DNA of 64,000 bases from Candidatus Aenigmatarchaeota archaeon (GCA_016187335.1 JACPJW010000001.1:352001-416000); one strand, 5' to 3'. Shown: positions 9,179-60,149, counted from the stretch's first letter. Notes: generated by a model not told the origin, from the letters alone. Numbers and translations: made by a program.

Positions 9179-9206
9179 TTTTGATGCAACTTTTTGTAAA
9201 AGTTGC
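9179..9206 (+). repeat. REP-like palindrome, copy 1
   Basis: TTTTGATGCAACTTTTTGTAAAAGTTGC; arms GCAACTTTT/AAAAGTTGC. Confidence 0.8.
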
Positions 9207-25886: not shown

Positions 25887-25914
25887 TTTTGATGCAACTT
25901 TTTTGAAAAGTTGC
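25887..25914 (+). repeat. REP-like palindrome, copy 2
   Basis: TTTTGATGCAACTTTTTTGAAAAGTTGC. Confidence 0.85.
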
Positions 25915-31690: not shown

Positions 31691-31718
31691 TTTTGATTAA
31701 ACTTTTTTGAAAAGTTTA
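31691..31718 (+). repeat. REP-like palindrome, copy 3 (TA variant)
   Basis: TTTTGATTAAACTTTTTTGAAAAGTTTA. Confidence 0.8.
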
Positions 31719-49780: not shown

Positions 49781-49808
49781 TTTTGATGCAACTTTTTTGA
49801 AAAGTTGC
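49781..49808 (+). repeat. REP-like palindrome, copy 4
   Basis: TTTTGATGCAACTTTTTTGAAAAGTTGC, 2 nt from the tRNA-Arg 3' end. Confidence 0.85.
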
Positions 49809-50004: not shown

Positions 50005-50769
50005 ATGACTCGCATCATAACTTGCACTTCCGGGAAGGGTGGCGCAGGCAAAACTACATTGGTTGCTAACTTAGGGCTTGCATTGCGCGAGCTGGGGCGA
50101 GACGTGATAGTCGTTGACGCCAACCTGACGACGCCAAATCTGGGTTTACATTTAGGAGTTCCATTGTACCCGACGACGCTTCACGACGTCCTCAAAGGCA
50201 CTGCGGACATCAAGGATGCCATTTACCGCCACGAAAGCGGCCTGAAAGTTATCCCTGCGGGTATATCCCTGCGCGACCTGCGGGGGGTTGATGCGCATGA
50301 CCTCCCTGAAGCCGTCATGGATCTGCTCGGGAGCGCGGAAATAGTGCTGATTGACAGCGCAGCAGGCCTTGGCAAGGAAGCTTTGTCGGCTATAGAAGCA
50401 TCAGATGAAATCATAATAGTCACGACGCCGGACCTTCCTTCTGTCACGGATGCCCTGAAAACAATGAAGCTTGCCGAGCAGGTGGGGACAAGAGTTACCG
50501 GCGTTGTCATAAACAGGGTCACAAAAATGAGGCACGAAATGACGACCCAGCAGGTTTCCAACATGCTTGACGGTCCTGAGATTTTGGCGGAAATACCCGA
50601 GGATATAAACGTCCATAGAGCCGTGGCAAGCAGGCAGCCTGTTGTCCATCACGTGCCGCATTCACACGCCAGCAGAAGCATAAAGGGCCTTGCCGCAACG
50701 CTTGTCGGGGAGCCTTCCTTGACAAAAGATCCATGGTACAAGCGTTTTCTCTCGTTCATGTACAGGTAA
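50005..50769 (+). CDS. minD: MinD-family ATPase
   Basis: SGKGGAGKTT, VDANLTTPNL, IDSAAGLG, GVVINRV, IPED. Confidence 0.93.
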   Translation: MTRIITCTSGKGGAGKTTLVANLGLALRELGRDVIVVDANLTTPNLGLHLGVPLYPTTLHDVLKGTADIKDAIYRHESGLKVIPAGISLRDLRGVDAHDLPEAVMDLLGSAEIVLIDSAAGLGKEALSAIEASDEIIIVTTPDLPSVTDALKTMKLAEQVGTRVTGVVINRVTKMRHEMTTQQVSNMLDGPEILAEIPEDINVHRAVASRQPVVHHVPHSHASRSIKGLAATLVGEPSLTKDPWYKRFLSFMYR

Positions 50770-50770
50770 A

Positions 50771-50874
50771 CTTCCTAAAAGAACATAAGTTCTTTTGGGT
50801 CTTGGAACGCTTTGCTTTCCAAAGATTTCCAAAAAGTTTCATCAAAGCAACTTTTCAAAAAAGTTGCATCAAAA
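50771..50874. repeat. Composite multi-hairpin element ending in REP-like copy 5 (reverse orientation, 50847-50874)
   Basis: AAAAGAAC-ATAA-GTTCTTTT, imperfect TTGGAA..TTCCAA, partial AAAAAGTTTCATCAAA, then GCAACTTTTCAAAAAAGTTGCATCAAAA. Confidence 0.8.
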
Positions 50875-50886
50875 AGGGTGGTTACG

Positions 50887-50976
50887 ATGCCGCGCAAAAA
50901 GAAGAAACGCCTGATGCAGGAAGAAGCTGAGCGGAATATCAGGCCGGTTAAGTGGAAGGCAAAGGGAAGAAGCTAG
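50887..50976 (+). CDS. Putative 29-aa basic microprotein
   Basis: GGGTGG RBS; MPRKKKKRLMQEEAERNIRPVKWKAKGRS. Confidence 0.5.
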   Translation: MPRKKKKRLMQEEAERNIRPVKWKAKGRS

Positions 50977-52607
50977 GTTAGCGTCTTAATTATTTCTTCC
51001 AGATCCATCTCTAAAGCAACCACAGGCTTTTCCAGCTTCCAGTTATTTATCACTGATGGGTGCAATTCTCCGATAACACCTAAATGCTTTTTCCCGACGA
51101 AAATGTCAGCGCACCTGCCTTCAATGAATGAAGCATGGACACTTTTCTTCAATGAATATTTTATTCCCAGATTGCTGAAGAATGCATCCAGAACAGAAGA
51201 TAATTGTTCGTAGCTTATTTTTGAATCGCTGATGCCGGCAGAAAACTTTTTCATTATTGCTACACCGGTTTCCTGGTTTTCATCAGGCAGCAGAACATCG
51301 CCTACTTCAAAAATTTTCTGCGGGTAATCGCGGTGCTTGTTCTGGCTGAATGTTTTTATCAGCGAAGGAAGAAGGCTTGGTCTGCATATAGTGCACTCAA
51401 CTGTTACCGGGTTGAGAGTTTCACAGACTTCTTCTTCTCTTTTGTTCATTTTTGCGAACTCGTCTTCTTTGTTAGTAAGAATCATGCTCATGACTTCCTG
51501 AAATCCCAAGGCAGTCAGGGAATCACGAAGATAGTAAACAAAATCTTCCTTGCTTCTTTCAGCTATAGTAGGGACTTTGGGTATCTTGGGTTCAAATGTC
51601 CAGTAGCCTTTTCCTATTGCAGCATCCTCAACAATGTCCATCTCATGCATTATGTCCACGCGGTACGGCGGTACCAGAACATAGCCGTCATATTCGAAAC
51701 CCATTTTTCCTAAAAGTTCCCGGAATTCTTGGGGATTGAGGTCTAGATCAAGCAGTTTGTTTACATAATCAATGCTTACCTTCATTCTCCACGGCTTCAG
51801 GTCAGGCGTTATATTTTTCGTTTTGCCTATGACTTCTACTGTTTCCACGTCAAAGCCACGCTCTGCCAATGATGTTACCAGAATATTCAATGCCTGGTTG
51901 ATTGCCAGTTTATTTGTTCCTGTTATGTCTATGAATAAATTTTTTGTATGCTGCGTGACTCGCGTCAGCTCGCCGTTAATTATCGGCGGGAAGCTGAGAA
52001 CATCGCCGTTGCTGTCAGTTATTACAGGGTATTCCCTGGCGCCCTTTAGTATATGCGCGTATTCCTTGCCCTTAGGATGCTCATCCAGGATTTCCCCGAG
52101 GTTCATTTTTTCCTTCATGTCGAGAGGAATGAAGGAAATTTCTTTGGGCTTTGCTGGTTTGTAAGTGAACGGCGGCTTTACTTTGTCCAGATCATGGATA
52201 CCTATGGCTATTTTCTTTCTTTTCCTGCCGAAGGTCTCGTGTATCTTTTCCTGCAGCTGTATCAGCGAGCCAATCACGTAATCGTTGAGCTTTGCATTGC
52301 GCACGACAGCGGCAACAACATAAGGCCTGGACTCAACATTTTTTGCAGCCAGCTTTATGCCGCTTGACTTTGACTTGTATTTGGAAAGTCCCTTGCTCAA
52401 CCCCAGAAACGTCCGCAAGGCACGCGCAAACCCCTCGGGGCTCAGCAAATCAGGCCTGTTAGGGAATATCTCGTAATAAATCTTGCCGTCTTCCAGCTTC
52501 TCAAAGGGGCATCCCATCATGGGTATCAGTTCCGTTAATTCCTTTTCTGATAACTTCTTGCCTACAAGATTTTCTAGGTCGCTCAGGAAAAATTCTACTA
52601 CTGCCAT
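50973..52607 (-). CDS. pheT: Phenylalanyl-tRNA synthetase beta subunit
   Basis: PNRPDLLS, SFPPIIN, DIMHEMDIVED, FIEGRCA, GELHP. Confidence 0.97.
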   Translation of the reverse strand: MAVVEFFLSDLENLVGKKLSEKELTELIPMMGCPFEKLEDGKIYYEIFPNRPDLLSPEGFARALRTFLGLSKGLSKYKSKSSGIKLAAKNVESRPYVVAAVVRNAKLNDYVIGSLIQLQEKIHETFGRKRKKIAIGIHDLDKVKPPFTYKPAKPKEISFIPLDMKEKMNLGEILDEHPKGKEYAHILKGAREYPVITDSNGDVLSFPPIINGELTRVTQHTKNLFIDITGTNKLAINQALNILVTSLAERGFDVETVEVIGKTKNITPDLKPWRMKVSIDYVNKLLDLDLNPQEFRELLGKMGFEYDGYVLVPPYRVDIMHEMDIVEDAAIGKGYWTFEPKIPKVPTIAERSKEDFVYYLRDSLTALGFQEVMSMILTNKEDEFAKMNKREEEVCETLNPVTVECTICRPSLLPSLIKTFSQNKHRDYPQKIFEVGDVLLPDENQETGVAIMKKFSAGISDSKISYEQLSSVLDAFFSNLGIKYSLKKSVHASFIEGRCADIFVGKKHLGVIGELHPSVINNWKLEKPVVALEMDLEEIIKTLT

Positions 52608-53827
52608 AACACCGCTTCCCTCAGCAATTTCAGGTCATTCTTGTAATAGAAATTCCTGATATCATTCATACCCATCTTGAGCATTATCAGCCGCTCAAGT
52701 CCAAGCCCCCACGCAAGTACAGGAACGTCAATGCCTACGGCTTTGCACATTTCCGGCCTGAATATCCCGGACCCGCCCATCTCAATCCACTCCCCCTTTT
52801 CTTCAAAATATATCTCCGGCTCCGTTGACATCTCCGTGTAAGGGAAGTAAGCCGGACGAAACCTTACTTTGAAGCCCATCCTCTGGTAGAATTCCTTCAG
52901 GTAGCCCAGCAAATCGCGGAAACCTATGTTTTCATCAAGAACTATGCCTTCTATCTGGGTGAATTCTGCCGTATGCTTGTAATCTATGCTTTCATTGCGA
53001 AATGTCTTGCCTATGCAGAAGACCTTTGCAGGCGGCGTAAGCTTGCTCATCTCGCGGATGGAAACTGCTGTCGTGTGCGTCCTTAACACAGCTTGTTTTG
53101 CAATTTCCTCGCTCCATTTGTAGCGCCATCCCAGCGAGCCTGTGCCGCCTCCGTTTTCATGAGCAGCCTTGACCTGATTAACAAGATTTTTGTCAGGTAA
53201 TTTACATTTTTTAGGGTTTTTCATGTAGAAAGTATCCTGCAATTCCCTGCCTGGATGATCCTGCGGCACGAACAGCGCGTCAAAGTTCCAGAAAGAGCTT
53301 TCTATCAACGGACCCGACGCTTCCTTAAAACCGAGGTCAAAAAATATATCTCTTATTTTCTGGATATAGAAAGAAACGATATGCTTTTTGCCGGGCTGAA
53401 TTTTCTGACCGGGAACTTCAACATTATACGGTCTGAATTTCCCTAGACGCCAGTCCCGGGTTTTTATCATTTCTTCCGTAAGAAATATAATTTCCTTTTC
53501 AATTTTTCTCGATTTTTCCGCAAGCTTCCTCTGGATCAGGACAGAAAGGATGTTTTCGTCAACTTTCTCCCCTCTGGATATTTTCTCCAGCGCCAGCTGC
53601 TCGGGGAAGCTTTTCGGTTCTTTGGCAAGATGGATTTTGCCTCCCTTCACTTCCACCCAGCCCTTTTTCTTCGCCCATTGTATGGCTATGGAAAAATTCT
53701 TCATCCTCCCTTTCAGCAGGTCAAAGGAAACTGGACCCTCTATAAGCAGCTCAACAAGGTTTTTTTCAGGCAAGCCTTCTTCTAGGTATTCTTTGCCCTC
53801 CTCTGTCAGCGCATACATGATAATCAC
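52598..53827 (-). CDS. pheS: Phenylalanyl-tRNA synthetase alpha subunit
   Basis: FWNFDALF.PQDHPGRE, LRTHTT, FRNE..HTAEFTQIEG, FPYTEMS, WGLGLER. Confidence 0.97.
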   Translation of the reverse strand: MIIMYALTEEGKEYLEEGLPEKNLVELLIEGPVSFDLLKGRMKNFSIAIQWAKKKGWVEVKGGKIHLAKEPKSFPEQLALEKISRGEKVDENILSVLIQRKLAEKSRKIEKEIIFLTEEMIKTRDWRLGKFRPYNVEVPGQKIQPGKKHIVSFYIQKIRDIFFDLGFKEASGPLIESSFWNFDALFVPQDHPGRELQDTFYMKNPKKCKLPDKNLVNQVKAAHENGGGTGSLGWRYKWSEEIAKQAVLRTHTTAVSIREMSKLTPPAKVFCIGKTFRNESIDYKHTAEFTQIEGIVLDENIGFRDLLGYLKEFYQRMGFKVRFRPAYFPYTEMSTEPEIYFEEKGEWIEMGGSGIFRPEMCKAVGIDVPVLAWGLGLERLIMLKMGMNDIRNFYYKNDLKLLREAVLWQ

Positions 53828-53871
53828 TTGCTTTTCCGAGTCTTAAATATTGGATTCTGGTAAATTTTTTA

Positions 53872-54228
53872 TCAGCGGATAAATCCCCATCCACGTCTTC
53901 GAGGCATTTGATCTGGATTTTCTGCCTTTGGATAAGCAGCATGCAGGCACCCGCCTGTGCACTCATTATCCAGTACAGGCCTTATACTTACCAGTTCATC
54001 TCCACGTACCAAACCAGCACGAATGACGGAACCATAAGGACATCCTTTATGGCATTTAATTCCTCTGACAGTAGCGCCATCATATGTGACAGCTTCGCAT
54101 TCATGCGTGCCCTCGGGTAGAGACGCTCCGGTCAATATAGTTGCCTTGTCTCTTCTACTTCCTGCTTGTTCTATTTGTTTTGCAATGTATCCGCTTATTC
54201 TTGGGATTCCGTTTCCATCTGAACTCAT
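53872..54228 (-). CDS. Orphan Cys-containing protein upstream of pheS
   Basis: GAGGTG RBS; HEC, CHKGC, ECTGGC; AT-richer. Confidence 0.65.
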   Translation of the reverse strand: MSSDGNGIPRISGYIAKQIEQAGSRRDKATILTGASLPEGTHECEAVTYDGATVRGIKCHKGCPYGSVIRAGLVRGDELVSIRPVLDNECTGGCLHAAYPKAENPDQMPRRRGWGFIR

Positions 54229-54486
54229 TTCTCAGCACCTCTTTTCTATTTTCCTGCCTAACTGCTTATCGGGCACAGCAGAACGCTGTGCCTAGATGTA
54301 AAAGAAAAACTCAAAAAATTCCGTGCAGAAGTTAGACAAGAAATCAGTATAACAACTAATCAGAACATTCCGGTTTAGCGAAGAAATTGGTACGGCATCA
54401 GTCCACCCTTGTAACATAATAATGAAGCGCTCAAATATATAAATTTATCTGAGCCGCTTTTAAAAACATCTTGGCAAAATAAGATT

Positions 54487-55947
54487 ATGTCAAATACAGC
54501 GGAGATAGAAAAGATAGCGCTGCGAAGAGGCTTTTTCTTCCCGTCATCAGAAATTTACGGGGGGCTGTCCGGCTTATATGATTACGGCCCTCTGGGAACG
54601 CTGATGAAAAGGAAATGGGAGGGACTGTGGAGAAGGTTCTTTCTCGGACTGGACGAGAATTTCTACGAGATAGAAGCAGCTGACATAATGCATGAAGGAG
54701 TTTTCATTGCTTCCGGCCATCTTCAGAGCTTTGTTGACCCTGTCGTGAAATGCAAGAAATGCGGTTATGCGGAAAGAGCTGACCACATCCTCGAAGATGT
54801 CCTGCAGGAAAAGTTTGAAGGACTTTCGCCGCAGCAGCTTGACGAGATAATAAAGAAGCACAATATAAAATGCCCGAAATGCGGCGGCGCGTTTCAGGAA
54901 GTTGGAATTCTGAATATGATGTTCCCGCTGAATGTCGGCGTGGACAAGCCAGCTCGTGCCTATCTAAGGCCCGAAACGGCGCAGGGTGCCTATGTAAACT
55001 TCCGTAGAGCCTTTGAGGTATTACGCAAAAAACTTCCGTTGGGCTTGGCAATTATAGGCAAAGCCTACCGCAACGAGATATCGCCGCGTAATCTGCTGAT
55101 AAGGATGAGGGAATTCACGCAAGCAGAATTACAGATCTTTTTCAATCCGAAGAAAATAGACGAGCATCCTGATTTCAACGAAGTGAAGGATTACCCGTTG
55201 CGTATTTATTCCGAAGAAAAAAAGCTGAAGTTCACCGAAGAGCTGTCGTCCTCACAGGTTTGCAAGGAGCAGAATTTGCCGGAATTCTACGTTTATTACA
55301 TGGCGAAAATCCAGCAGTTTTATCTTGACGTGCTCAAGATAGACCCCAAGAAATTCCGCTTTCGTGAATTAAGCAAAGAAGAAAGGGCGTTTTACAACAA
55401 GTACCACTGGGATGTAGAGTTAGAGCTGAGCGATGGTTTCAGGGAAGTCGGCGGCATCCACTACAGGACTGACCATGATTTATCAGGGCATCAGAAAGTG
55501 TCGAAGCAGGACATGTCTGTTTTTGCTGACGCCGAGAAGTTTGTTCCCCATGTCCTTGAACTGAGCTTCGGGGTGGACAGGAATATTTTTGCCCTGATGG
55601 ATTTGTCTCTGAAGAAAGGAAAAGAAGGAATGATTTTCGCTTTCCCGAAGATAGCTGCGCCTTATGACGCTGCCGTGTTTCCGCTGGTAAGCAAGAACGG
55701 CCTTCCTGAAAAGGCCCGGGAAATATTCGGAATCCTCTCAGGCTTCACCATGCTGTACGACGAGTCAGGCAGCATCGGCCGCAGATACGCTCGGCAGGAC
55801 GAGGCAGGAACGCCTTTCTGCATCACCGTGGACCATCAGACGCTTGAGGACAATACCGTCACGGTCCGCGACAGGGATACTACAAAGCAGGTAAGGGTGG
55901 GCATAAACGAGCTAGCAGAAAAAATATCAGAAATGCTTTCCGAATAG
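54487..55947 (+). CDS. glyS: Glycyl-tRNA synthetase (alpha2 type)
   Basis: YDYGPLG, LRPETAQG, RNEISPR, EFTQAE, SFGVDR, GSIGRRYARQDE. Confidence 0.97.
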   Translation: MSNTAEIEKIALRRGFFFPSSEIYGGLSGLYDYGPLGTLMKRKWEGLWRRFFLGLDENFYEIEAADIMHEGVFIASGHLQSFVDPVVKCKKCGYAERADHILEDVLQEKFEGLSPQQLDEIIKKHNIKCPKCGGAFQEVGILNMMFPLNVGVDKPARAYLRPETAQGAYVNFRRAFEVLRKKLPLGLAIIGKAYRNEISPRNLLIRMREFTQAELQIFFNPKKIDEHPDFNEVKDYPLRIYSEEKKLKFTEELSSSQVCKEQNLPEFYVYYMAKIQQFYLDVLKIDPKKFRFRELSKEERAFYNKYHWDVELELSDGFREVGGIHYRTDHDLSGHQKVSKQDMSVFADAEKFVPHVLELSFGVDRNIFALMDLSLKKGKEGMIFAFPKIAAPYDAAVFPLVSKNGLPEKAREIFGILSGFTMLYDESGSIGRRYARQDEAGTPFCITVDHQTLEDNTVTVRDRDTTKQVRVGINELAEKISEMLSE

Positions 55948-55949
55948 AT

Positions 55950-55975
55950 TTTTGATTAAACTTTTTAAAAAGTTC
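55950..55975 (+). repeat. REP-like palindrome, copy 6 (degenerate TA variant)
   Basis: TTTTGATTAAACTTTTTAAAAAGTTC between convergent genes. Confidence 0.75.
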
Positions 55976-57116
55976 ACCTGAACTTTCTCAGCTGCCCGCT
56001 TTTCTTGGCGGCTTCGTGCCTTTGTACCTTCCCGTATTTTTTCTTTATTTCCCGTTCCAGCTTGCCCAGAACATCCTGCGCAACGTCAAGAGGCTTCCAG
56101 CCCATTGAGTGAGACACGAAAAGCCCCAGCGGCGTGCCTATTCTCGCGCGCATCACATAGCGGATTTTCTTATCGCCACCGCCATGGTCGTTCTGCCTCT
56201 CTACATGAACAAAGAGATATTGTACGCTGTCCATCATCCTCCCGATTTTCTGGACAAATCTTGTTGTTGCCTCGTCCACGCCGGCAATCAGTTCGCTGCT
56301 TTCGCCGTGAAGCCCAGTGACTTGCACGTAAACCTGTTTTTTAGGGCCTGAAACGAGCAGTTCAAGGATATCCTTTGGGGTTATTATTCCCGGCTCGCCG
56401 TTCATGACGATAACTTCTTCGCTTTTCTGCAGTAAGTCCAAAGCCCTTTCCAGAGGAGAGTTTTCTTTCAGTATGGCAGCAGCATGCATGAAAGATTCCA
56501 CGCCAGCACTTTCAGTGGACATCTTTTCGCTGGCGCCCCGCTCCTTTGTTTTTCCTCTCATCTCCATTTTTTCTTTTCCTTCGAGCAGCTTTATCATGTC
56601 CAGCGTCCCTACGACCCCGAGAACCTTTTGGCCGTCGATAACAGGGACGCGCGATACGTTTTTGTTGAACATGATTTTTTTGACTTTCCCGGCATTGTCA
56701 CCTTTCGACACGCACTCACACTTGACAGCAATATCCCCGCAGGTTTTCTTCGTGTTCATCAGTTTTGATGCAACCTTGACAACATCATATTCGGAAACAA
56801 TACCCACCAGATTCCCTTTGTCCACAACAGGAACAGCCCTTAATCCCGTGTTCAGTAGGAGTTCTATGATTTTCTGCAAGTCATGCTCCGGCGAAGCAGT
56901 GGAAGTGCTCGTTACGTAGTTCTCAACCTTTGTTGACTGTATGTCTATGTCCTTTGTAACAATGTTTTTCAATTCAAGCAGCCCGAGAACATTCTTCCCT
57001 TCAACGACAGGAAGCCGGTGGATATTGTATTTTTTCATCTTGGCCAATGCCGTGTTCAATGTGTCGCCCCTTCCGCAGGTTATCACGTTTCTGGTCATGA
57101 TTTCGCTTACTTTCAT
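55974..57116 (-). CDS. CBS-domain protein with C-terminal HPF/RaiA-like domain (candidate ribosome hibernation factor)
   Basis: About four CBS repeats, then a ~110 aa alpha/beta domain (VHVE..RYVMRARI..GWKPLDVAQDVLGKLEREI) resembling HPF/S30EA. Confidence 0.75.
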   Translation of the reverse strand: MKVSEIMTRNVITCGRGDTLNTALAKMKKYNIHRLPVVEGKNVLGLLELKNIVTKDIDIQSTKVENYVTSTSTASPEHDLQKIIELLLNTGLRAVPVVDKGNLVGIVSEYDVVKVASKLMNTKKTCGDIAVKCECVSKGDNAGKVKKIMFNKNVSRVPVIDGQKVLGVVGTLDMIKLLEGKEKMEMRGKTKERGASEKMSTESAGVESFMHAAAILKENSPLERALDLLQKSEEVIVMNGEPGIITPKDILELLVSGPKKQVYVQVTGLHGESSELIAGVDEATTRFVQKIGRMMDSVQYLFVHVERQNDHGGGDKKIRYVMRARIGTPLGLFVSHSMGWKPLDVAQDVLGKLEREIKKKYGKVQRHEAAKKSGQLRKFR

Positions 57117-57138
57117 GAAAACACCTAGGGTTTATGCC

Positions 57139-57159
57139 TTACTCTATAGAATAGAGTAA
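57139..57159. promoter_or_regulatory. Perfect 9-bp-arm palindrome in a divergent promoter
   Basis: TTACTCTAT-AGA-ATAGAGTAA next to TAAATTTATA. Confidence 0.5.
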
Positions 57160-57223
57160 ATAAATTTATACAGATGAAATCTGGGAAAAATTTCTTTTTA
57201 AGGTTAATTGTTGTCGTTTATTT

Positions 57224-58504
57224 ATGGCTAAAGACGGTAAATCCAAAAAAGAACATGTAAGAGTCATGGTAAGAAATTTTGAAGTAGGTAGTGACGAATT
57301 ATTCATAATAGCAGGCCCTTGTTCTGTTGAAAGCCGAGACCATATCATAGAAATGGCTTATTTAGTTAGAGGTGCTGGTGCTGATGCCCTACGTGGCGGT
57401 GCTTTCAAACCACGCACAGAAGCTGGTAAATTTGATGGCTTGAAAGAAAATGGTTTAAGGTATCTGGTTGAAGCTAGAGAAAAGACAGGATTGCCGATAG
57501 TTACTGAGATAATGGCAATAGAAGATATCCCATTATTTCAACAATACGGTGTTGATGTATATCAAGTAGGAACAAGAAATGCCCAGAACTTCCCCCTATT
57601 ACATGCACTCGGAGATCTTGGTGTAACTGTTTTGCTGAAGAGAGGAATGGGAAACAAAGTTGAGGAATGGCTAGGTGCTGCAAGTCATGTAGTTTCAAGA
57701 AGGAATAAAAATCTGATTTTGTGTGAACGAGGAGTGTCTACATTTGATTCTAAGTTATTCAGAAACATGGCGGATATTGCAGGAATGGCTTACGCAGAAA
57801 TGGAAGATAAATATCCGGTTTTATTTGACCCAAGCCACGCAACCGGTATTAGAAAACTTGTTCGTCCAATGTCTCGCGCTGCTGTTACAGCAGGCGCTGA
57901 CGGGCTTTTAATAGAAGTTCATGATGATCCGAATTACGCAAAAACAGATGGTCAACAGAGCATATACCCACGTGAGCTTGAATTTTTAATAAAGGAAGCT
58001 AGGCGACTTAGAGCAGAATATATTGATTCGACGGCAGGACATGAAAAATGGATGGAAAAGCTGCAACCTAACATGACAATATACTTTCAGAAGGAATATC
58101 TAGATGATGTATGCGCTTTATTGGGATCTGATGCAGAGAGATTGAGGGTCAGGTCATACGGAGAAGACACAGGAATTCTTCAGGCAAGGGTAAAGACAGG
58201 TCATGTAGGAAAATTAAAACAAAAAGGCGGTTATGCTATCGGAAGACTTTCGATGTGGAGTTCAGGTCCTGGAGAACCAGCTACAATACCGATGGCGAGT
58301 GTTGAGGCAGGGGGTCAACCAAAAACAATTCTAACCCTTTACGACAAAGAATTATTAGAAGACGCAGGTAAAAAGACAATAGACCAACGATACACACATC
58401 TTAGAAGATTACAAGTGAGACAATCGCACCCGGGAGATTTAGAACTTATAGCAAAAGCCTTTACGACTTATACGGATAGACCTCTTATTCTATATCAACC
58501 ATAG
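57224..58504 (+). CDS. aroF: DAHP synthase, class I-beta, with unknown ~150 aa C-terminal extension
   Basis: IAGPCSVE, RGGAFKPRT, GTRNAQNF, LKRG, CERG, DPSH, IEVH, DGQQS. Confidence 0.88.
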   Translation: MAKDGKSKKEHVRVMVRNFEVGSDELFIIAGPCSVESRDHIIEMAYLVRGAGADALRGGAFKPRTEAGKFDGLKENGLRYLVEAREKTGLPIVTEIMAIEDIPLFQQYGVDVYQVGTRNAQNFPLLHALGDLGVTVLLKRGMGNKVEEWLGAASHVVSRRNKNLILCERGVSTFDSKLFRNMADIAGMAYAEMEDKYPVLFDPSHATGIRKLVRPMSRAAVTAGADGLLIEVHDDPNYAKTDGQQSIYPRELEFLIKEARRLRAEYIDSTAGHEKWMEKLQPNMTIYFQKEYLDDVCALLGSDAERLRVRSYGEDTGILQARVKTGHVGKLKQKGGYAIGRLSMWSSGPGEPATIPMASVEAGGQPKTILTLYDKELLEDAGKKTIDQRYTHLRRLQVRQSHPGDLELIAKAFTTYTDRPLILYQP

Positions 58505-59113
58505 TCAAGGCTTATGTCTTGTAATAGCGTAGTAGGTCACGTCTCCTTCGTTATCCACAATCGCCCATAACATCCTTGCTCGTATGTTGTGGGCAAGCCT
58601 GACAGAGCGCGAAAGTTCCTGGAACGACATGGTGAAATCCTCCGGCACCGAGAAAACTATCCATTTCGTGTGCTCTTTGGCGGATTTCGGCCCTTTCTTC
58701 AGCTGCACGCCCCTTTCATACACGCGGAAGTCGCAGCCGAACTTGAATCCTGTCCTGACAAGCAGCCCGCGCTCCCTGAGGTCTTCGTAAACGCGGTAGC
58801 GCTCCGTGAACCTTTTGTCCAGAGCAGAAGAATGCCTGAACAGCTCGTCGAATGTTATTTGTTTCTTGCTGCTGTCAAAGACCCTTATCCTGCCGCGCTT
58901 CAGCAGCAGGCACGCTTCTACCAGAGCCAGTTCAAGCCTGTCAGGAAGAATTTTGCCGTAATAGCCGGGCTCGTAAACGCTTTCAAAGTTTTTCCATGCA
59001 ACTGCTTTGTTCTCTTCCAGCGTTGTATCCACAACTTCTTTGAAAGGCTCCGGCTCCACGTATTCCGGTCTATCCTCTTCAGAATCATGCTTTTTCTTGG
59101 ACATTTTGAACAC
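58505..59113 (-). CDS. endA: tRNA splicing endonuclease (single-domain alpha type)
   Basis: LVEAC, VYEDLRERG, GFKFGCDFRVY, EH, SVRLAH, AIVDNEGDVTYY. Confidence 0.94.
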   Translation of the reverse strand: MFKMSKKKHDSEEDRPEYVEPEPFKEVVDTTLEENKAVAWKNFESVYEPGYYGKILPDRLELALVEACLLLKRGRIRVFDSSKKQITFDELFRHSSALDKRFTERYRVYEDLRERGLLVRTGFKFGCDFRVYERGVQLKKGPKSAKEHTKWIVFSVPEDFTMSFQELSRSVRLAHNIRARMLWAIVDNEGDVTYYAITRHKP

Positions 59114-59248
59114 CTGAGAGGATTATGGATTACCAAAGCCTAGAGTATTCCTTATCATCAATGAAAATTATTTCCGTTTGACAGAAGCAAGGTATGGGTC
59201 TATGCCCCCTTACTTCATGTTTTTGTTTTTATGACAAAGCTTAAAAGA

Positions 59249-59812
59249 TTAAGCGTAGTTTGTCTCGCCCGTTGCGCAATTGACGGTCAGATTTCCGCTG
59301 CATATGATTTTGTCATTCTCGATGCGCCACTGCTTCACCGTTGCGCTGTCCACATCGGATATTGTGCAGCATATGGATTTCACTGAGTTTTTCACAAGGT
59401 TCTTGTAGCCTATTGCAGATGCAGACTGGTTGGATTTTATGCTGTTTAACTCATTTCTGCATTCGTTCAGGCTGCTTTCCGACGAAGTTCTCAGGCTTGA
59501 CAAATCGCCCTCGCACTTGCCAAGGCTTGCCGAATTACTCTGCAGATTCCCGGAACACTCGTTATAAAGAGCCGTTTTGTCATTAAGGCTTTTTGCGCAA
59601 TCCACGCGCGCAGTTGAAATAATCTTCAGGTCCTCTTTGGTGTTGTTGAGCTCCGATTCAAGCTTTGTGGTGTAGGTCGTGTAGCCTGTAAAAACAGTTC
59701 CTACGGAATAAAGCACAAAAACAACAAGCACGGCAATAAGCGCGATTCCTATTTTTTTAGTATCTATATTCATCTTGCCCGGCGGCGCGTATTCGTAACC
59801 CATAATTACCAT
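59249..59812 (-). CDS. Membrane-anchored coiled-coil protein with Cys-rich C-terminus
   Basis: N-terminal TM, heptad repeats with periodic Cys, ICC..IIC..NC. Confidence 0.7.
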   Translation of the reverse strand: MVIMGYEYAPPGKMNIDTKKIGIALIAVLVVFVLYSVGTVFTGYTTYTTKLESELNNTKEDLKIISTARVDCAKSLNDKTALYNECSGNLQSNSASLGKCEGDLSSLRTSSESSLNECRNELNSIKSNQSASAIGYKNLVKNSVKSICCTISDVDSATVKQWRIENDKIICSGNLTVNCATGETNYA

Positions 59813-59912
59813 TTCGCCGGGGCGATATTAATAGGTTGCCTTTAGAAAGCAGCAAAGAAAGCGTAATGCGGGTGTGATTTAACCCTTTTAGAAAAAGCGT
59901 CACGGAAAAAGA

Positions 59913-60149
59913 TGGGAAGGGAGGGATTTCCAGAACTTTTCATCGTTTTCCTCGAAGAACATCAGTTCTTCGGTATCTCGGAGAACTATCGTTCTCCGCA
60001 GATGATCGAACTTTTCTGAAAAGTTCGTTTGGACCCTCGACATTCCCGGCGTAGCACCAATCAAGTGCTATGCTCCACGGTCTTCAGCCGTGTGCTCTCC
60101 CAGGCTTTGCCAACCGAAAAAATCATTCTCGGTTTTGAGCTACCTTCCC
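59913..60149 (-). tRNA. tRNA-Phe(GAA) with three introns: 14/15 (30 nt, 60106-60135), about 43/44-44/45 (~32 nt, ~60044-60075) and 59/60 (101 nt, 59927-60027)
   Basis: Acceptor GGGAAGG/CCTTCCC, CACGG-CT-GAA-GA-CCGTG, T-stem GAGGG/CCCTC; the third intron has a complete hBHBh' (UCCA/UGGA); mature length about 74 nt. Confidence 0.88.

Follow-up and report, generated by a model that had tools for sequence, protein, structure and literature searches.

The closest precedent for the locus described here comes from the Thermoproteales, where near-identical introns are found in unrelated tRNA genes, including at the non-canonical position 59/60. The review that summarises them (PMC4090602) attributes them to "transposition", the mechanism of which was left unknown (Fujishima et al. 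2010, Mol Biol Evol 27:2233), and reads them as recent gain at the DNA level; no mention of intergenic copies was found in it. The route by which such introns arrive is also left open in a study of Asgard archaea (10.64898/2026.10.13.758758). Here, we analyse a 64-kb stretch of DNA (the window; JACPJW010000001.1:352001-416000) from a Candidatus Aenigmatarchaeota archaeon (GCA_016187335.1), in which similar hairpins occur in a 101-nt intron at position 59/60 of a tRNA-Phe gene and in an intergenic element downstream of a minD-type gene (50771-50874, plus strand; element A). The best explanation of the whole, to which we assign a probability of roughly two in three, is that two small repeat modules colonised the genome, a 26-nt motif (M) and a 53-54-nt module of two back-to-back hairpins (DH), and that each of the two loci is a different mosaic of them. 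As in the Thermoproteales, near-identical introns reside in unrelated tRNA genes; unlike the introns described in that review, most copies of the families here lie at stop codons or in spacers and not in RNA genes, a second repeat is nested within the first, and a congener retains the exact empty site.

Among bacterial repeats, bacterial interspersed mosaic elements (BIMEs) combine palindromic units into mosaics. Together with the repetitive extragenic palindromic (REP) sequences and REP doublets forming hairpins (REPINs), which are mobilised by REP-associated tyrosine transposases (RAYTs), they resemble M and DH in being short, multi-copy extragenic palindromes, often situated at gene ends, that are non-autonomous and form hairpins in single-stranded DNA or RNA (PMC3116915). 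The present modules differ from these in having an archaeal host and no GTAG-type head, in that neither RAYT nor Y1 was found, and in that copies are tolerated within tRNA and rRNA genes, through predicted splicing. Palindrome-associated elements derived from IS200/IS605 carry hairpins at both ends and insert at a short preferred target without target duplication. DH shares the hairpins at both ends and the insertion without target duplication, whereas TnpA and TnpB were not found, the target preference is weak and the element measures only ~53 nt. Mitochondrial double-hairpin elements and other repetitive hairpin elements of organelles are located in spacers, introns and variable parts of rRNA. 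Those of Allomyces (Paquin, Laforest and Lang 2000, cited in PMC2800124) also consist of two adjacent hairpins with no flanking duplication, and their insertions differ among related species. They have no sequence relationship to the modules described here, belong to another genetic system and are not known to be linked to protein-spliced introns. Among the systems compared, none links a genome-wide hairpin repeat to protein-spliced introns; new here are the exact empty site, a paralogous pair of filled and empty introns, and two loci that represent different mosaics. A literature search for the M sequence returned no relevant paper, no published description of either repeat family was found, and Rfam holds no family for M or DH.

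The source genome comprises 1.01 Mb in two contigs (C1 and C2) with 47% GC, is 90.8% complete, and its DNA is present in groundwater metagenomes; among the public runs listed as containing this DNA, no RNA run was found. The sole congener compared (G001) is 56% complete and shares 74% nucleotide identity with it. The tRNA-Phe(GAA) gene is located on the minus strand at 59913-60149 and contains three introns, which is why it was not called by ARAGORN or Rfam on the unedited sequence (60149-59913). With all three introns removed, ARAGORN returns tRNA-Phe(GAA), with the anticodon GAA at 60085-60083 in the anticodon loop CTGAAGA and an acceptor stem GGGAAGG/CCTTCCC, and intron-less orthologues align to the exons. 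At the gathering score, no Rfam family matches the tRNA-Phe locus or element A, and the scan of the whole window returns two tRNA matches only; genome-wide, 12 tRNAs exceed the Rfam threshold, and relaxed splicing motifs escape a simple finder.

Within the T-loop, a strict bulge-helix-bulge search yields a single solution, the 101-nt intron at 60027-59927 (minus strand). This agrees in coordinates and sequence with an earlier, sequence-only reading of the window, which had given the intron on the plus strand; that sequence is right, and is antisense to the RNA since the tRNA is encoded on the minus strand. The predicted splicing motif runs GAGGG, TCCA, AAC, 10-bp inner helix, TGGA, AAT and CCCTC, such that an outer helix (GAGGG/CCCTC) and the inner helix flank two 3-nt bulges, AAC and AAT, which lie on opposite strands and are separated by the 4-bp central helix TCCA/TGGA, as in the archaeal bulge-helix-bulge. 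The 5' half (60027-60033) consists of exonic TCCA (60033-60030) and the bulge AAC (60029-60027), the 3' half (59926-59932) of intronic TGGA (59932-59929) and the bulge AAT (59928-59926), with a predicted cut after AA in each. The 5' strand of the inner helix, GAACTTTTCA (60017-60026), doubles as the left arm of the M hairpin; its pairing partner is TGAAAAGTTC (59942-59933), a second copy of the M right arm. The minimum-energy fold of the T-arm and intron contains the same motif with two free-standing hairpins inside (z = -5.1). Both the motif search and the fold bear out the earlier suggestion that a half-palindrome repeated at the intron 3' end makes the intron-side helix. The accompanying idea of a self-masking intron stands for the inner helix, which the intron supplies itself, and falls for the central 4-bp helix, which uses the exonic T-loop and differs in its bases from host to host.

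The M motif of the intron is sense to the tRNA, with the hairpin and the start of the tail at 60004-60025 and the last four A of the tail at 59949-59946. Between them, within the M tail and antisense to both M and the tRNA, lies a DH module (59950-60003, plus strand) that scores 67.3 bits with covariance model R1 and E = 6.6e-11 with a hidden Markov model (HMM) from which it had been left out; removal of 59950-60003 restores the full M consensus. Inspection of the intron sequence by eye for the conserved boxes of C/D-box or H/ACA guide RNAs found none, and this reading of the intron was discarded. The splicing endonuclease of the host, EndA, is encoded nearby (58505-59113, minus strand; 202 aa) with both its N-terminal and catalytic domains, so the availability of EndA, presumed by the sequence-only reading, is borne out. 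No second EndA gene was detected in the genome, and this one is ~0.8 kb away from tRNA-Phe.

Position 55 of tRNA is nearly universally U (pseudouridine). The mature T-loop of this tRNA-Phe is predicted to read UCCAAAU, with C at position 55 (window 60033-60028 plus 59926); G001 has the same loop, and other relatives have UUCAAAU.

Element A starts at the stop codon of the minD gene, which encodes a MinD/ParA-type ATPase (50005-50769, plus strand) and whose stop codon it abuts, and ends 12 nt upstream of a 29-codon open reading frame (ORF). It comprises two copies of M on the plus strand. The first (50769-50848) is interrupted: its left arm AACTT (50769-50773) shares its first base with the end of the minD stop codon TAA, a DH module (50774-50827, plus strand; R1 63.2 bits, leave-out HMM E = 1.5e-5) follows in the same orientation as M, between AACTT and TTCC, and the remainder of M occupies 50828-50848. 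The second M (50849-50874) is intact, with a perfect consensus (zero mismatches), a 9-bp hairpin fold and its outer stem pair GC at 50847-50848. Excision of DH in silico leaves a consensus M that matches other copies here (removing 50774-50827), as it does in the intron. Thus, DH sits in the tail and antisense in one locus and in the left arm and sense in the other, and the intron and element A are different mosaics of M and DH, not one element. The hairpins common to both lie outside the splicing motif.

Sequence comparison confirms that the hairpins of the intron resemble those of element A far beyond chance. Shuffling had been suggested earlier as a check on chance similarity: for the 54-nt double-hairpin parts in +/+ orientation, z = 8.3 relative to dinucleotide shuffles, of which 0 of 2000 reach the observed score, and the +/- orientation gives z = 3.1. 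The compensatory stem changes reported between the loci are real, with two hairpin-1 pairs differing by double changes (G-C and C-G to A-T and A-T). With an HMM built from 16 other intergenic copies, excluding both loci and the related tRNA introns, element A is recovered at E = 1.5e-5, and the copies in the three tRNA introns at E = 7e-12 to 7e-11. A direct BLAST match between the intron and element A is weak (E = 4.5), and the link between them runs through the repeat family. The sequence-only reading was therefore right to see one repeat family in the spacer and the intron, and mistaken in seeing one ~100-nt element, as the M/DH mosaics differ. The terminal palindrome that it took as shared is indeed present at both loci; it is, however, a separate genome-wide motif (76 copies) that lies on opposite strands at the two.

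M is a 9-bp hairpin with a 3-nt loop, followed by an ATCAAAA tail, with the pattern AACTTTTC-NN-AAAAGTT-NN-ATCAAAA, and about 80 copies are present in the source genome, 76 of them within five mismatches. The two bases preceding M pair with the NN that follows the right arm in 65/65 copies with intact arms, through nine dinucleotide types, compared with a shuffle mean of 16.6. Many copies lie 0-4 nt after a stop codon and many 6-14 nt before a start codon; the TGA and TAA stop codons of upstream genes are often part of the outer stem. In the window, M is found at 9179-9204(-), 25887-25912(-), 31691-31716(-), 49781-49806(-) and 50849-50874(+). At least a dozen copies reside within introns of tRNA (T-loop, D-loop and anticodon region) and of 16S and 23S-like rRNA, where the right arm is repeated after the tail; this repeat and the left arm together make up the inner helix of the splicing motif. 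Most intergenic copies lack this closing arm, and all lack the four bases that pair with the T-loop. We note M-type introns of 50 and 46 nt with strict splicing motifs in apparent 16S and 23S rRNA genes (C2:242573 and C2:209925 regions); a 16S intron is found at the matching site in another Aenigmatarchaeota genome (L166).

The exact M pattern is present in at least 109 public contigs from many archaeal lineages, several times again inside tRNA or 16S introns. Contigs bearing M (L131-L210) derive from Aenigmatarchaeota, Micrarchaeota, Woesearchaeota, Iainarchaeum, Methanosarcinales of the anaerobic methanotroph (ANME) type, Methanophagales, Thermoplasmatales and others. In ANME-type genomes, M is found within a larger repeat and in identical 60-64-nt tandem units (for example, L191:1-300 and L152:7250-7428); a CRISPR reading of these arrays, suggested by the 60-64-nt spacing, was rejected because the "spacers" are identical, leaving plain tandem repeats. 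A role for M as a promoter of leaderless mRNAs was also considered and set aside: the distance of 6-14 nt to start codons fits, but the copies at convergent gene ends and in rRNA and tRNA genes, and their absence from orthologous sites of the congener, do not.

For DH, the covariance-model search proposed by the sequence-only reading recovers about 49 loci in the genome. In a 20-copy alignment, 12 of the 20 stem pairs are changed on both sides, 92.5% of the stem cells pair, as against ~55% after a one-position shift of the partner column, and the covariation score is reached by 0/500 shuffles. At least 16 of the 49 copies are located at one of two fixed positions within M, and the others lie outside M or beside a third repeat. 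The left flank usually ends TT or TTT, a weak target preference, and neither nested sites nor filled/empty pairs show a target duplication. DH has two separate hairpins, and its ends are not the terminal inverted repeats of a miniature inverted-repeat transposable element (MITE). The nesting of DH within M-type introns is shown most clearly by a DH-free paralogue in the same genome: once 54 nt are taken out, the composite intron of tRNA-Asp matches a 44-nt intron in the T-loop of a different tRNA gene, without a difference over the 5' 24 nt and the 3' 17 nt. Three-hairpin composites with the architecture of the intron (M, hairpin 2, hairpin 1) follow stop codons at six intergenic sites, and the one at C2:8327 carries an extra downstream half-palindrome. 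One further DH insertion, missing in G001, splits a copy of a conserved block, AATAATAAGGGAAATGAGGGTAGAGGGAGAG, that together with a short hairpin precedes several tRNA genes (C2:176340-176400, 81100, 716330 and 739070) and may be their promoter or leader.

The same composite intron is observed at position 59/60 of tRNA-Ala(UGC), a gene with a G3:U70 pair, and of tRNA-Asp(GUC), with BLAST identities of 95% and 82-89%, respectively. The exons of the three genes are alike only in the T-loop consensus, as in clusters of transposed introns. The DH parts of the three introns are mutual nearest relatives (96%, 93% and 89%), with that of tRNA-Phe closest to Ala (96%) and Asp (89%); the nearest intergenic copy reaches 82% and element A ~70%. 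The bases that pair with the exon follow the T-loop of each host, namely TCCA/TGGA in Phe, TTCA/TGAA in Ala and TTCG/CGAA in Asp, and the inner helix is changed on both sides between the Phe/Ala and Asp copies. Such co-varying helices are what would be expected of selection for splicing after a move.

Comparison with relatives supports a lineage-specific gain of the T-loop intron of tRNA-Phe, which would postdate the split from G001. In G001, the T-loop is precisely empty and reads TCCAAAT, identical to the predicted spliced product (site GAGGGTCCAAATCCCTC), and in most genomes of the family and order, tRNA-Phe is uninterrupted, in keeping with the intron gain that the sequence-only reading had envisaged. 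Similarly, the spacer between minD and the small ORF in G001 measures 40 nt and contains neither M nor DH, and at five or more additional sites, M or DH is present in one of the two genomes and missing from the other. Across 40 relatives, the distribution of DH is patchy, ranging from 0 to 118 matches; ten intron-like or DH matches in nine relatives include none inside a recognisable tRNA intron. The source genome (C2:77608-77695) and G001 (L042:19442-19529) share, in different gene contexts, an 88-nt composite of M and DH with 100% identity, which hints at recent interspecies exchange or a strongly constrained master copy.

We propose that M, inserted into a tRNA or rRNA gene together with a second right arm, would form the inner helix of a splicing motif and thereby permit excision by EndA and rejoining of the exons. 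DH would be a separate insertion unit that often lands inside M and, as a passenger that folds independently, would leave the splicing motif intact, M supplying the intron-side helix. A short M-type intron of the T-loop would have gained DH in its tail, and the composite, moving as a whole, would have come to occupy the T-loops of tRNA-Asp, tRNA-Ala and tRNA-Phe, the last of these after the sister species had split. Single-base changes may then have adapted the four pairing bases of the intron to the T-loop of each host. The likeliest source of the Phe intron is the T-loop of another tRNA, because the 3' end of the composite already fits the conserved loop and because its nearest relatives are the Ala and Asp introns. 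For M and DH as such, we favour spread at the DNA level, since intergenic copies outnumber the intron copies and are more diverse, since at least one of them predates the split from G001, and since DH is found both sense and antisense to transcription, whereas a reverse transcriptase was not found.

Several observations weigh against a history of two colonising modules. A search of the source genome for a Y1 transposase, TnpB, a reverse transcriptase or any other candidate mobilising gene, including the mobilising nuclease sought by the sequence-only reading, found none in the 90.8% recovered; the sole Y1/RAYT match is a 16.7-bit, 45-aa fragment with a stop codon, one tyrosine recombinase is encoded, and neither the autonomous partner of a MITE nor the RAYT of REP/REPIN elements was detected. 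Excision of the 101-nt intron from the tRNA-Phe precursor is a prediction from the modelled motif and fold. DH occupies only two fixed positions within M, so that each composite could be an old family of its own instead of the product of repeated insertions. The post-stop composite at C1:7908 is kept at the orthologous site of G001, with M unchanged and both hairpins altered with compensation, which fits a selected function as well as selfish persistence. The tRNA-Ala and tRNA-Asp orthologues were not found in G001 (56% complete), and an intron-less tRNA-Phe allele was not found in contigs of four DNA runs from three studies; none of these contigs skips the intron or element A, and the contigs break at repeats.

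Alternatively, M and DH would be selected, structured signals, such as 3'-end, terminator or promoter cassettes or protein-binding hairpins, present in introns and spacers alike through a common host factor and without movement of the sequences. The near-invariance of M here and across archaeal phyla, its gene-oriented placement 0-4 nt after many stops and 6-14 nt before many starts, the strong stem covariation and the compensated hairpins beside an unchanged M at the C1:7908 site would all be accommodated. We nonetheless consider it unlikely, as all sites compared base by base are occupied in only one of the two congeners, copy numbers among relatives range from 0 to 118, copies are nested in each other, and rRNA and tRNA genes harbour them, where a terminator or promoter would be harmful. 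Nor would shared signals readily account for an 88-nt copy that is 100% identical at non-syntenic sites of genomes with 74% identity.

That a single miniature palindromic element of ~100 nt, self-sufficient for splicing, jumped from an intergenic site into the T-loop, as the sequence-only reading held, appears quite improbable. Although the six post-stop intergenic composites share the architecture of the intron, and the one at C2:8327 even has the extra half-palindrome, element A has another architecture with M in the opposite orientation. Most intergenic copies are without the closing arm and all without the four T-loop-pairing bases, while the nearest relatives of the intron are other introns and a DH-free version of it exists.

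Spread at the RNA level, whereby circular introns re-enter RNAs by reversal of EndA and ligase and are copied into DNA, the intergenic copies being retro-copies, is in our view very improbable. Archaeal introns are known to circularise (PMC12558985), and the use of one T-loop position in three tRNAs, with a 3' end able to pair with the conserved loop, would follow naturally, as would the lack of target duplication, which has been argued for the mitochondrial double-hairpin elements (PMC2800124). Against this, no reverse transcriptase was detected in the 90.8% complete genome, the intergenic copies are far more numerous and diverse, with some older than the intron copies, DH is antisense in the intron and sense in element A, and intergenic M lacks the closing arm. 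Finally, chance similarity among AT-rich hairpins, to which the non-significant direct BLAST match (E = 4.5) might point, is refuted by the orientation-dependent z = 8.3, by leave-out HMM values down to 7e-12 and by ~49 family members with compensatory changes.

The surroundings of the two loci show further differences between relatives. In addition to the T-loop intron, tRNA-Phe contains a D-loop intron of ~30 nt (60106-60135, minus strand; boundaries uncertain by an A run), which is missing from G001 and most relatives, a similar intron being present at the same place in one of them (G015), and a variable-region intron of ~32 nt (60042-60073, minus strand; relaxed splicing motif, boundaries approximate), which is identical in G001 and missing from the other relatives. 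The intron set of the gene, namely D-loop, variable region and T-loop here and a site near position 26 and the variable region in G001 (L002:1480-1620), therefore implies that introns of this one gene were gained or lost three times within a single genus. Directly 3' of tRNA-Phe and antisense to it lies a third repeat module (ACCCTTT, hairpin, AAAGCGT-NNN-CGGAAA; window ~59881-59912), where G001 has M. The third module is also present at C2:236770-236845 and C2:716800-716850; it makes up the intron of tRNA-Asp at the canonical position, and an inverted pair of such modules makes up that in the D-loop of tRNA-Ala. EndA is situated just downstream of tRNA-Phe in several relatives as well (L004, L010 and L011); here, a 187-codon ORF without a Pfam match (59249-59812) separates the two. 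The 29-codon ORF 3' of element A (50887-50976, plus strand) is conserved after minD in relatives, where it lies between the minD-type gene and pheT; its product is very basic (MPRKKKKR...), finds no match in Pfam and could represent a small protein that has escaped annotation.

Beyond the reading of the two loci as mosaics of colonising modules, we raise, as a tentative and rather doubtful extension, the idea that M and DH are the vehicle so far missing from accounts of how Archaea gain protein-spliced introns, being tiny transposase-free hairpin units whose sequence is conserved across phyla and that insert almost anywhere. In that case, M would bring or quickly evolve its own splicing helices and so persist in tRNA and rRNA genes, the mover would be a conserved host activity (hairpin-prone replication or repair, or the reversal of EndA and ligase), and exchange between co-occurring species would account for the identical 88-nt copy.

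The question of how archaeal tRNA genes gain protein-spliced introns is thus addressed with a concrete case, in which an intron that appears to have been gained since the split from a congener with the exact empty site is built from repeat modules borne by spacers. The same case offers a nested insertion from which the sequence of events can be read and what seems to be single-base re-tuning of the exon-pairing bases in three host tRNAs. It connects the tRNA introns of archaea directly with repeat DNA that is prone to insertion, and it opens intron gain to tests by comparative and population genomics, in a lineage where such gain would still be continuing.

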